64,000 bases of DNA from Alphaproteobacteria bacterium. GTDB taxonomy: Bacteria > Pseudomonadota > Alphaproteobacteria > RF32 > CAG-239. The notes beneath the pieces were generated by a model. The model searched no databases. It saw only the letters and a program-made list of their open reading frames with translations, and had not been told where the DNA came from. How positions within the stretch are numbered: the stretch's first letter is position 1; each line of letters begins with the position of its first letter. The translations under genes were made by a program, and so were the position numbers. Below, piece by piece: positions 17,765-18,700 of the stretch. The stretch lies in contig JAZKXV010000012.1 in the NCBI GenBank assembly GCA_045611785.1, positions 82,916-146,915 of the forward strand, written 5' to 3'.

Positions 17765-18700
17765 ATGCTAAAATTTTTATCTCAAGAAAATGCCGATAAC
17801 ATAGATTTTGTAACCAATCTATTATCTCTGACAAATTTGCCTCATTTAGTTGGCACTCCAATTCGGTTAGTCGGCGGATCCAAATCTTTTGCATATCGCA
17901 TAAACGATTATGTAGTACGTTTTCCTAAAGCTGAAATAATTTGGCAATCACAACAATTAGAAGCAAAAATATCAAACTTATTGCAAGAAAACTTACCTGA
18001 TAAATTGAAAAATAAAATAACTGACATTGTTTGTTATTCAAAATTAGAATATCCGTTTACATATCATAAAATCATAAAAGGTAAAATTTGTGACAACATC
18101 CGAGGAGAAACAGAGTATAATACATGTTATGCCAATTTATCAAAAACTCAAAAAACATTATTGGCTGAAGAAATTGCTGAACTACTGGCGGCAATTCACT
18201 CTATTTCAACTGATATAACTAACACCATGGCAGATAATTGGAATTTTACCCAAAAACCTGATTTTGATTATAATCTGTGCAAATCAGCATTATTAAAATA
18301 CAGCGACAATAAAATCAATCTTGATGATTTTAAGTGTAACATTGATAATAATATGGTTTTTGCTCATAACGACATGAGCGGAAGCAACATTATACTAGAT
18401 GAAACTCAAGAAAATGCTTTGCAAGGTGTTCTTGACTTTGGAAATGCCGGTATTATGCCTCAAATTAATGACTTTTTGCCGTTTTATAAAATTGACAGAC
18501 ATTTAGCCAAACATATTATCTATGCGTATAACCAAATTTCAAATATTAAAATAAACCAAAGTCAAGCAGATTATCTAACTCTTTCATACTTAGGATACAT
18601 AATATATAATCAAGAACAACAAGGAAATGCACCTTTTAATTTCTTATTGATAATCTTGAAAAACATTATATCAGATTTACAAAACGACAAGAACAATTAA
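17765..18700 (+). CDS. Phosphotransferase-enzyme-family kinase (APH/choline-kinase-like fold).
   Basis: Catalytic-loop-like HNDMSGSNIILDE and DFG-like VLDFGNAG motifs. 311 aa. 19 nt downstream of the giant ORF. Confidence 0.6.
   Translation: MLKFLSQENADNIDFVTNLLSLTNLPHLVGTPIRLVGGSKSFAYRINDYVVRFPKAEIIWQSQQLEAKISNLLQENLPDKLKNKITDIVCYSKLEYPFTYHKIIKGKICDNIRGETEYNTCYANLSKTQKTLLAEEIAELLAAIHSISTDITNTMADNWNFTQKPDFDYNLCKSALLKYSDNKINLDDFKCNIDNNMVFAHNDMSGSNIILDETQENALQGVLDFGNAGIMPQINDFLPFYKIDRHLAKHIIYAYNQISNIKINQSQADYLTLSYLGYIIYNQEQQGNAPFNFLLIILKNIISDLQNDKNN

Follow-up and report, generated by a model that had tools for sequence, protein, structure and literature searches.

Does the occurrence of two kinase-like proteins side by side at one locus reflect a functional system or the way in which the locus was assembled? 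The question is raised by a stretch of 64,000 nucleotides on contig JAZKXV010000012.1 of an alphaproteobacterial genome (assembly GCA_045611785.1), which was analysed as a whole and is here called the window. In this stretch, a gene encoding a 311-residue protein with the features of an APH-family kinase, the subject of our study, directly follows a giant open reading frame (ORF) whose product combines a metalloprotease motif with a kinase-like region of its own. A preliminary description of the window had proposed that the smaller kinase might either decorate surface molecules, in line with a neighbouring sugar dehydratase, or act as partner or immunity protein of its giant neighbour. Our analysis leads to a different answer, which we consider probable, though with some reserve: the protein would be a lineage-restricted accessory kinase with an APH fold, present in multiple copies, that has been displaced by a strain-specific rearrangement from a set of genes comprising a small ORF termed u167, the kinase and an HD-domain protein. 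The two neighbouring kinases would then represent an accident of position and not a system.

The kinase gene initiates at an ATG located 18 nt past the stop of the giant ORF (the adjacency had been described correctly, with a spacing of 19 nt that our count does not reproduce) and is preceded by the ribosome-binding site AAGGAAG. It is a real gene that is kept by purifying selection, because its product scores 43.4 bits against Pfam APH (PF01636; E 4.5e-11, gathering cut-off 23.2 bits), because it has 181 homolog clusters, because contigs of three other metagenome samples carry an identical copy in unchanged gene order and because its dN/dS with respect to seven relatives is 0.12-0.20 (Nei-Gojobori). 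The two motifs that had been noticed earlier are both found in the ORF, with HNDMSGSN covering residues 201-208 (nt 18365-18388) and DFG residues 224-226 (nt 18434-18442).

The predicted properties of the protein are reflected in an alignment of 40 homologs of 37-73% identity (A1), all of which match Pfam APH. Its invariant catalytic set consists of K55 (in VRFPK), E66, H201/N202/D203, N208 and D224-F225, and these residues align with the FKFPK, HNDFS and DFG motifs of APH(2'')-IVa. Additional invariant positions that are specific to the family include GKICD106-110, R113, H145, W159, K242, R245, Y255-N256 and D269. An AlphaFold2 model built from A1 (pLDDT 94.1, pTM 0.90) has 314 matches in the PDB at E <= 0.001 when compared with Foldseek, the top 50 of which are all APH(2'')-IVa, -Ia, -IIa or -Ib or MphB/Mph(2')-II, with the best matches reaching E ~1e-12 and a TM-score of ~0.6 at 16-23% identity. 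A search of PDB sequences with the family profile retrieved APH(2'') enzymes only (best E 3e-17). Judged by sequence and model, the protein is a kinase of the APH fold in which the catalytic residues are all intact; it belongs to the antibiotic-kinase branch with APH(2'') and Mph as nearest relatives, and phosphotransfer is predicted for it. Its initial classification as APH/choline-kinase-like is thus borne out with respect to the APH fold, including an intact Brenner motif and DFG, whereas Choline_kinase is a weaker second match below threshold.

The kinase family is confined to a narrow range of hosts. A scan of species-representative genomes yielded 62 kinase loci. Their sources are, essentially without exception, uncultured Alphaproteobacteria of gut or rumen or proteobacterial metagenome-assembled genomes, with human, sheep, goat, deer, yak and buffalo as host animals and a single locus binned as Gastranaerophilales. 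The nearest non-identical relatives share 69-73% identity, and tblastn searches of PLSDB plasmids and of a phage collection remained without a homolog. Often, the family is represented by several copies or tandem pairs per genome, in varied contexts. ORFs were called and clustered in the window and at 77 kinase loci (referred to by L numbers), where the flanking sequence extended over a maximum of 10 kb per side, and tblastn searches were carried out with the window's neighbour genes. A neighbour-joining tree divides the kinases into subclades, and for several of these a typical neighbour can be named: u167 and the HD-domain protein in one, a deeply diverged tandem APH paralog in another (~12 loci), and in a third an ankyrin-repeat protein of 1050-1070 residues that directly follows the kinase (L055, at 10915-14130, L057, L060 and L062; on the opposite strand in L029). 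In L055, L057 and L062, this last subclade also contains genes for a HAD-IB-like phosphatase and a CNNM/CorC transporter upstream of the kinase. At L009, a 70-residue ORF located straight after the kinase (10907-11119) matches kinase residues 35-86 at 44% identity and appears to be what is left of a tandem duplicate. Besides ankyrin-repeat proteins, Sel1 (window positions 30792-31937) and Fic (L004) proteins occur in the lineage, a hint at a host-associated lifestyle. A reading of the kinase as secreted effector, prompted by the proximity of ankyrin-repeat, Fic and Sel1 proteins in several genomes, has no direct evidence in its favour; inspection of the N-terminus (MLKFLSQENADNIDF) by eye, without the use of a predictor, revealed no hydrophobic stretch resembling a signal peptide.

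The arrangement from which the kinase would have been displaced is illustrated in its sister clade (L005, L012, L013-15, L020-22), where each kinase gene is directly preceded by u167, encoding 165-167 residues, with the copy in the window as sole exception. In this clade the stop codon of u167 overlaps the kinase start (TTAATG), and a gene for an HD-domain protein of 190-215 residues follows the kinase everywhere except in L022 (seven loci, five of them non-redundant). In a second subclade (L043, L047, L053, L066 and L072), whose kinases share only ~38-40% identity with those of the first, u167 is again found directly upstream, and the u167-kinase pair follows a gene pair for a heterodimeric ABC exporter. 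Taken over both subclades, u167 immediately precedes the kinase at 11 non-redundant loci, with overlapping stop and start codons. The order ABC-ABC-(u111)-u167-kinase-HD is found in L013 and L014.

In the window this order is disrupted. Homology detected by blastn to L005, L012-15 and L020-22 begins at 17743-17750, ~20 nt before the ATG of the kinase, as is also seen in alignment A4, and the short junction between giant ORF and kinase appears to be a remnant of an ancestral u167-kinase pair, judged from its homology to the equivalent segment of the relatives. An intact u167 gene is located downstream of the kinase at a distance of 5.6 kb, and tblastn detected no HD homolog in the window. It is this combination of a u167 remnant at the junction with an intact copy 5.6 kb away that leads us to infer that the adjacency of kinase and giant gene is secondary and originates from a rearrangement within the slot. 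Just upstream of the intact copy is the truncated 5' end of u424, a gene that adjoins the u167-kinase-HD set in relatives. On its right side the variable segment is bounded by a gene for tRNA-Pro(GGG), abutted by a hairpin with 21-nt arms located 3' of u167 (24802-24849); a tRNA-derived att-like direct repeat delimiting an island was not found by this tRNA. In the syntenic locus L162 of a related genome, the giant ortholog keeps its position after MltB in the order Tmk-PBP5-RlpA-MltB-giant-u175-u164 ... tRNA-Pro-EamA-BCCP-biotin carboxylase, and the kinase is absent. From this synteny it would follow that the giant gene has a conserved chromosomal position beside a slot for u167-family genes, and the segment between giant gene and tRNA-Pro appears to be hypervariable. 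The coordinates of the respective features are listed in Table 1.

Table 1. Features of the locus and u167-family genes elsewhere. Positions refer to the window unless a locus is named.
Feature	Positions	Strand	Properties
Giant ORF	12242..17746	+	1834 aa; M48 HExxH (HELGH) and ABC1/UbiB-like kinase region
Giant-kinase junction	17743..17764	+	~20 nt (ATCAAAGGAAGATAATTA) homologous to u167 3' end and ribosome-binding site before kinase ATG in relatives
APH-family kinase gene	17765..18700	+	311 aa, ATG start
CapD/FnlA/PseB-like short dehydratase	18751..19680	-	309 aa; Polysacc_synt_2, 278 bits
u424 5'-end remnant	24207..24294	+	~80 nt, fused just upstream of u167; found by tblastn and blastn
u167 ortholog	24300..24794	+	164 aa, 85-90% identical to the upstream gene of the sister clade
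tRNA-Pro(GGG)	24847..24923	-	only tRNA in window; 99% identical in syntenic L162
u167-family members elsewhere	L162 13530-14551; L004 8662-9192, 10933-11451; L005 8351-8875, 9504-10001		

The organisation of the locus might still suggest that the kinase works together with the giant M48/ABC1-like protein, whether as its functional partner, its regulator or its immunity factor. Both genes share the same strand and are separated by only 18 nt without a predicted terminator, the only promoter-like site is found upstream of the giant ORF (12187-12214), and in L162 members of the u167 family, which usually precedes this kinase, come directly after the giant gene. In this strain the kinase is likely co-transcribed with the giant gene, as an incidental consequence of its position. 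The giant protein, which carries the HExxH motif of M48 peptidases and whose relatives match Pfam ABC1, is part of a family with no fewer than 546 representative clusters, whose members are for the most part 1400-2100 residues long and combine M48 HExxH with an ABC1/UbiB-like kinase region. However, of the 77 kinase loci just three have the giant ORF beside the kinase, all of them on contigs identical to the window, and no match was obtained when 150 representatives of its family were compared with the ORFs of the other kinase loci (~68 non-redundant loci, within 10 kb). Conversely, no APH gene is located within 8 kb of giant orthologs of 68% (L162/L163), 57% (L164) and 45% identity (L165/L166), the last being two giant paralogs in tandem. 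The metagenomic sample that contains the 68% ortholog L163 does harbour the kinase, which there resides on a separate scaffold (L005) between u165 and HD. Together with the u167 remnant that occupies the junction, these observations make a partnership, as entertained in the preliminary description, very unlikely, and the co-occurrence with either the giant protein or CapD-like genes does not extend beyond the window-identical contigs. An early metagenome scan with the C-terminus of the giant protein found nothing, and a scan with the family profile mainly brought up M48 peptidases of a generic kind, with L082 as the single true homolog; there the kinase is not present on a contig that stops ~1 kb past the gene. 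In L164, a NADAR gene is found ~1.3 kb upstream of the giant homolog, with one gene in between.

Returning to the displaced accessory kinase as the account that we favour, the following course of events can be envisaged. The protein would be a cytoplasmic, presumably catalytically competent O-phosphotransferase that depends on ATP or GTP and whose family has diverged into subclades that differ in their conserved neighbours. In the subclade of the window, the kinase would normally be the second gene in the translationally coupled series u167-kinase-HD, often preceded by a heterodimeric ABC exporter pair. A rearrangement in the hypervariable slot between giant gene and tRNA-Pro would have moved it right behind the giant ORF, whereby it retained its old ribosome-binding site and ~20 nt of u167, lost the adjacency to u167 and was left with no HD gene in the window. 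Ancestrally, the kinase would have acted with u167 and the ABC exporter. It would phosphorylate a hydroxyl group of a small molecule that is neither an aminoglycoside nor choline, and the conserved Lys, Arg and Asp residues of its pocket suggest a substrate bearing anionic groups. The process might be part of a modify/demodify or detoxify/export setting that involves a phosphohydrolase, which would be the HD protein or, in a different subclade, a HAD-like enzyme.

Several points weigh against this account. About 80% of the kinase loci have no adjacent u167, and the module could reflect an insertion hotspot instead of a common function. Since the kinase of the window is split from u167 and has no HD gene here, the module may not operate in this strain, or the kinase may have taken another role. 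The short spacing to the giant gene, the common strand and the missing terminator make co-expression of both likely and a strain-specific functional link possible. The evidence is compatible with a protein as well as with a small molecule as target, and the similarity to solved APH structures is modest (TM-score of just ~0.6, 16-23% identity).

A more specific proposal would view the kinase as one enzyme of a u167-kinase-HD module that acts on a common substrate, such as a nucleotide-derived or exported metabolite, for example in a cycle of phosphorylation, transfer and dephosphorylation, from which the window copy has been dislocated. The overlap of u167 stop and kinase start in two divergent subclades, the HD gene that follows in the sister clade, the HAD-IB-like phosphatase upstream in a different subclade and the ABC exporter pair upstream of u167 would all fit such a role. 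In addition, a Foldseek comparison of the AlphaFold2 model of u167 (pLDDT 85) gave weak matches to DarT and KptA (probability 0.84, E 0.04), possibly a lead towards the ADP-ribosyltransferase fold of these two proteins. In contrast, the alignment of the u167 profile with E. coli KptA in hhalign gives a probability of 0.7%, and the models of Pfam, NCBIfam, PADLOC and PHROGs all fail to match u167. A profile search of the PDB returned only noise, a fold search of BFVD was uninformative, and a profile re-search for distant relatives recovered close homologs only, which did not deepen the alignment. The module is further challenged by the fact that u167, with 832 clusters compared to 181 for the kinase, is far more common and is usually found after an ABC pair without a kinase, by the missing HD gene in the window and by the possibility that a recombination hotspot explains the adjacency. 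Although possible, a common substrate for the three proteins in this form is thus rather unlikely.

The u167 proteins form a family of 165-175 residues that is cytoplasmic and 60-90% identical, and whose labelled or recovered contexts are all in gut or rumen Alphaproteobacteria. Two of its paralog types flank variable cargo, including S41 peptidases, u424, u209 and the kinase, with the 165-residue type often located after an ABC exporter pair. Among curated models, the HD-domain partner (L012 2543-3190 and its orthologs) comes closest to the HD domain of NadD-HD fusions, with 25 bits far below the cut-off; this likeness and the NADAR gene in L164 faintly suggest a theme of NAD or ADP-ribose. 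That the kinase subclade, u167 and HD constitute a so far undescribed three-enzyme module tied to a heterodimeric ABC exporter, of which the window contains a broken copy, is a speculation that we consider doubtful. If it were true, the module would run a phosphorylation-dependent modification cycle on a metabolite, a xenobiotic or the end of a nucleic acid, and u167 paralogs would serve as markers of hypervariable slots whose cargo includes the giant protein, S41 peptidases and further orphan genes.

In light of its nearest structural relatives, the kinase could also be a genuine resistance enzyme that inactivates a drug as aminoglycoside 2''- or macrolide 2'-phosphotransferase. Such a role would agree with APH(2'') as its nearest solved structures and sole PDB profile matches and MphB as second match by fold, and with the ABC exporter pairs and GNAT acetyltransferases that recur near family members. 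It conflicts with the poor fit to the NCBIfam APH(2'') models (NF033692, NF000498, NF000076, NF000015 and NF000132), where the kinase obtains 24-34 bits compared to cut-offs of 475-625, with the lack of a match to the Mph models at E <= 0.01 and with the low identity to the solved enzymes noted above. It is also at odds with a distinct difference in the putative substrate site: in APH(2'')-IVa, an acidic loop (SLMEDDEEYG) binds the polycationic drug, and the HMMER alignment places this loop opposite PFYKIDRHLA of the kinase, with K242 and R245 invariant in the family. It is the replacement of the acidic loop by an invariant Lys and Arg that argues against an aminoglycoside as the conserved substrate. 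The isoelectric points of family members range from 5 to 9.3. Moreover, homologs are absent from the plasmid and phage collections, and many tandem paralogs per genome are atypical of a resistance determinant. The hosts are gut and rumen bacteria that carry hydrogenase-related genes (HydF maturase, Fe-hydrogenase domains), and in such anaerobes the uptake of aminoglycosides is poor. Collectively, we consider a function in drug resistance improbable.

By the fourth alternative, the kinase would decorate a surface glycan or lipid in the manner of LicA, WaaP or Kdo kinases in conjunction with the CapD-like dehydratase; the preliminary description had put forward decoration of the LicA or WaaP type. 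In its favour, a dehydratase with a Polysacc_synt_2 domain is encoded 50 nt downstream of the kinase, and Choline_kinase (PF01633) is the second Pfam match in all 40 family members. However, this match, which covers residues 129-267 of the kinase, reaches 26.8 bits and thus stays below the gathering threshold of 29 bits, and the segment that follows the catalytic loop reads LDFGNAG and not the IDFEY-like motif that is found in choline kinases at this place. WaaP/Kdo kinase (PF06293) and CotH (PF08757) are unmatched at E <= 0.1 in each of the 40 members. The dehydratase gene is convergent with the kinase and constitutes, with an ORF of 401 residues (19691-20896), a strain-specific inverted two-gene cassette. 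This cassette is flanked by imperfect direct repeats of 46 nt (18695-18740 and 20999-21044; 74% identity with a 17-nt exact core, CATCAACAAATAAAATC), which may mark an insertion or have arisen by chance in AT-rich DNA. Among the neighbours examined (window ~9-24 kb), no glycosyltransferase or polysaccharide-export gene was identified. A surface-directed role as originally proposed is thus most improbable.

The dehydratase and the orphans of 401, 450 and 549 residues accompany the kinase only on the three window-identical contigs. The latter two (21135-22487 and 22530-24179, + strand) are tandem paralogs of ~60% identity that both start with MWPFSKK; they match neither Pfam nor PADLOC and were not found in the other fetched loci. 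Between 18001 and 22000 the GC content drops to 27.5-28%, compared to ~33% in the entire window, which would fit a segment that evolves fast or was acquired recently.

With respect to known subfamilies, the kinase falls outside every curated subfamily model tested and represents a new member of the known APH family. Among the NCBIfam models, only APH(2'') and APH(3') are matched at E <= 0.01, both far below their cut-offs, and none of the housekeeping equivalogs, such as homoserine kinase II (ThrB2) and MtnK, is found. The profile comparisons by which the preliminary description had intended to distinguish between APH, choline kinase, CotH and Kdo kinase thus confirm the first, with a sub-threshold score for the second and none for the other two. 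A housekeeping kinase with conserved genomic context elsewhere, named there as a contrary outcome, has emerged in part: such an assignment is absent, whereas a conserved context does exist, which is formed by u167 and HD and not by the giant gene. A function as protein kinase is unsupported by direct evidence, with marginal Pkinase matches in only 8 of the 40 aligned members. The defence models of PADLOC match neither the kinase nor u167, the giant protein or the orphans, with weak noise for HD, and a search of PHROGs with the kinase yielded just one 19-bit match to a family of unknown function.

These results have consequences for the annotation of related genes. Despite its best matches to APH(2''), the kinase gene should not be tallied as an aminoglycoside-resistance determinant in surveys of gut and rumen resistomes. 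A more useful lead is offered by the u167-kinase(-HD) order, which recurs in translationally coupled form, and by the u167 paralogs that bracket variable cargo in a poorly known gut lineage, and these genes provide a defined set for tests of substrate and function.

A comparison with known systems shows both the shared fold and the distinct features of the family. The closest resemblance is to the aminoglycoside kinases APH(2'')-IVa/Id, -Ia and -IIa (PDB 4n57, 4dta, 4ork/5iqa, 3ham), which have the same bilobal kinase-like fold in a chain of ~300 residues and share with our kinase the N-terminal G-x-S-x-A-Y ... RFPK lysine strand, the HxDxxxxN loop and the Asp of DFG. Although they are its best match by profile and Foldseek, the identity amounts to 18-23% and the scores are 10-20 times below the NCBIfam cut-offs. 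Unlike these enzymes, the kinase contains YKIxRxLA, with its invariant Lys and Arg, in place of the acidic aminoglycoside-binding loop and a family-specific insertion past the hinge with invariant C109, D110 and R113, and its gene is chromosomal, multi-copy and confined to gut and rumen Alphaproteobacteria. MphB/Mph(2')-II (PDB 5uxa, 5igz, 5ih0) is the second-best match by fold (E 1e-12, TM-score 0.61-0.62), and in contrast to APH(2'') it shows 16% identity, has no NCBIfam match at E <= 0.01 and is absent from the PDB profile search. Choline and ethanolamine kinases (PF01633), including LicA, have the catalytic core in common with our protein, which differs from them by the lack of the choline-kinase motif after the catalytic loop and of lic-type or phosphocholine-transfer genes nearby. 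Finally, homologs are annotated in their source records as generic members of Pfam APH, under names such as 'aminoglycoside phosphotransferase family protein' or 'phosphotransferase'; compared to these, the subfamily is set apart by its restriction to one clade, by its own invariant residues and by its own neighbours, namely u167, HD, a tandem paralog and an ankyrin-repeat protein.

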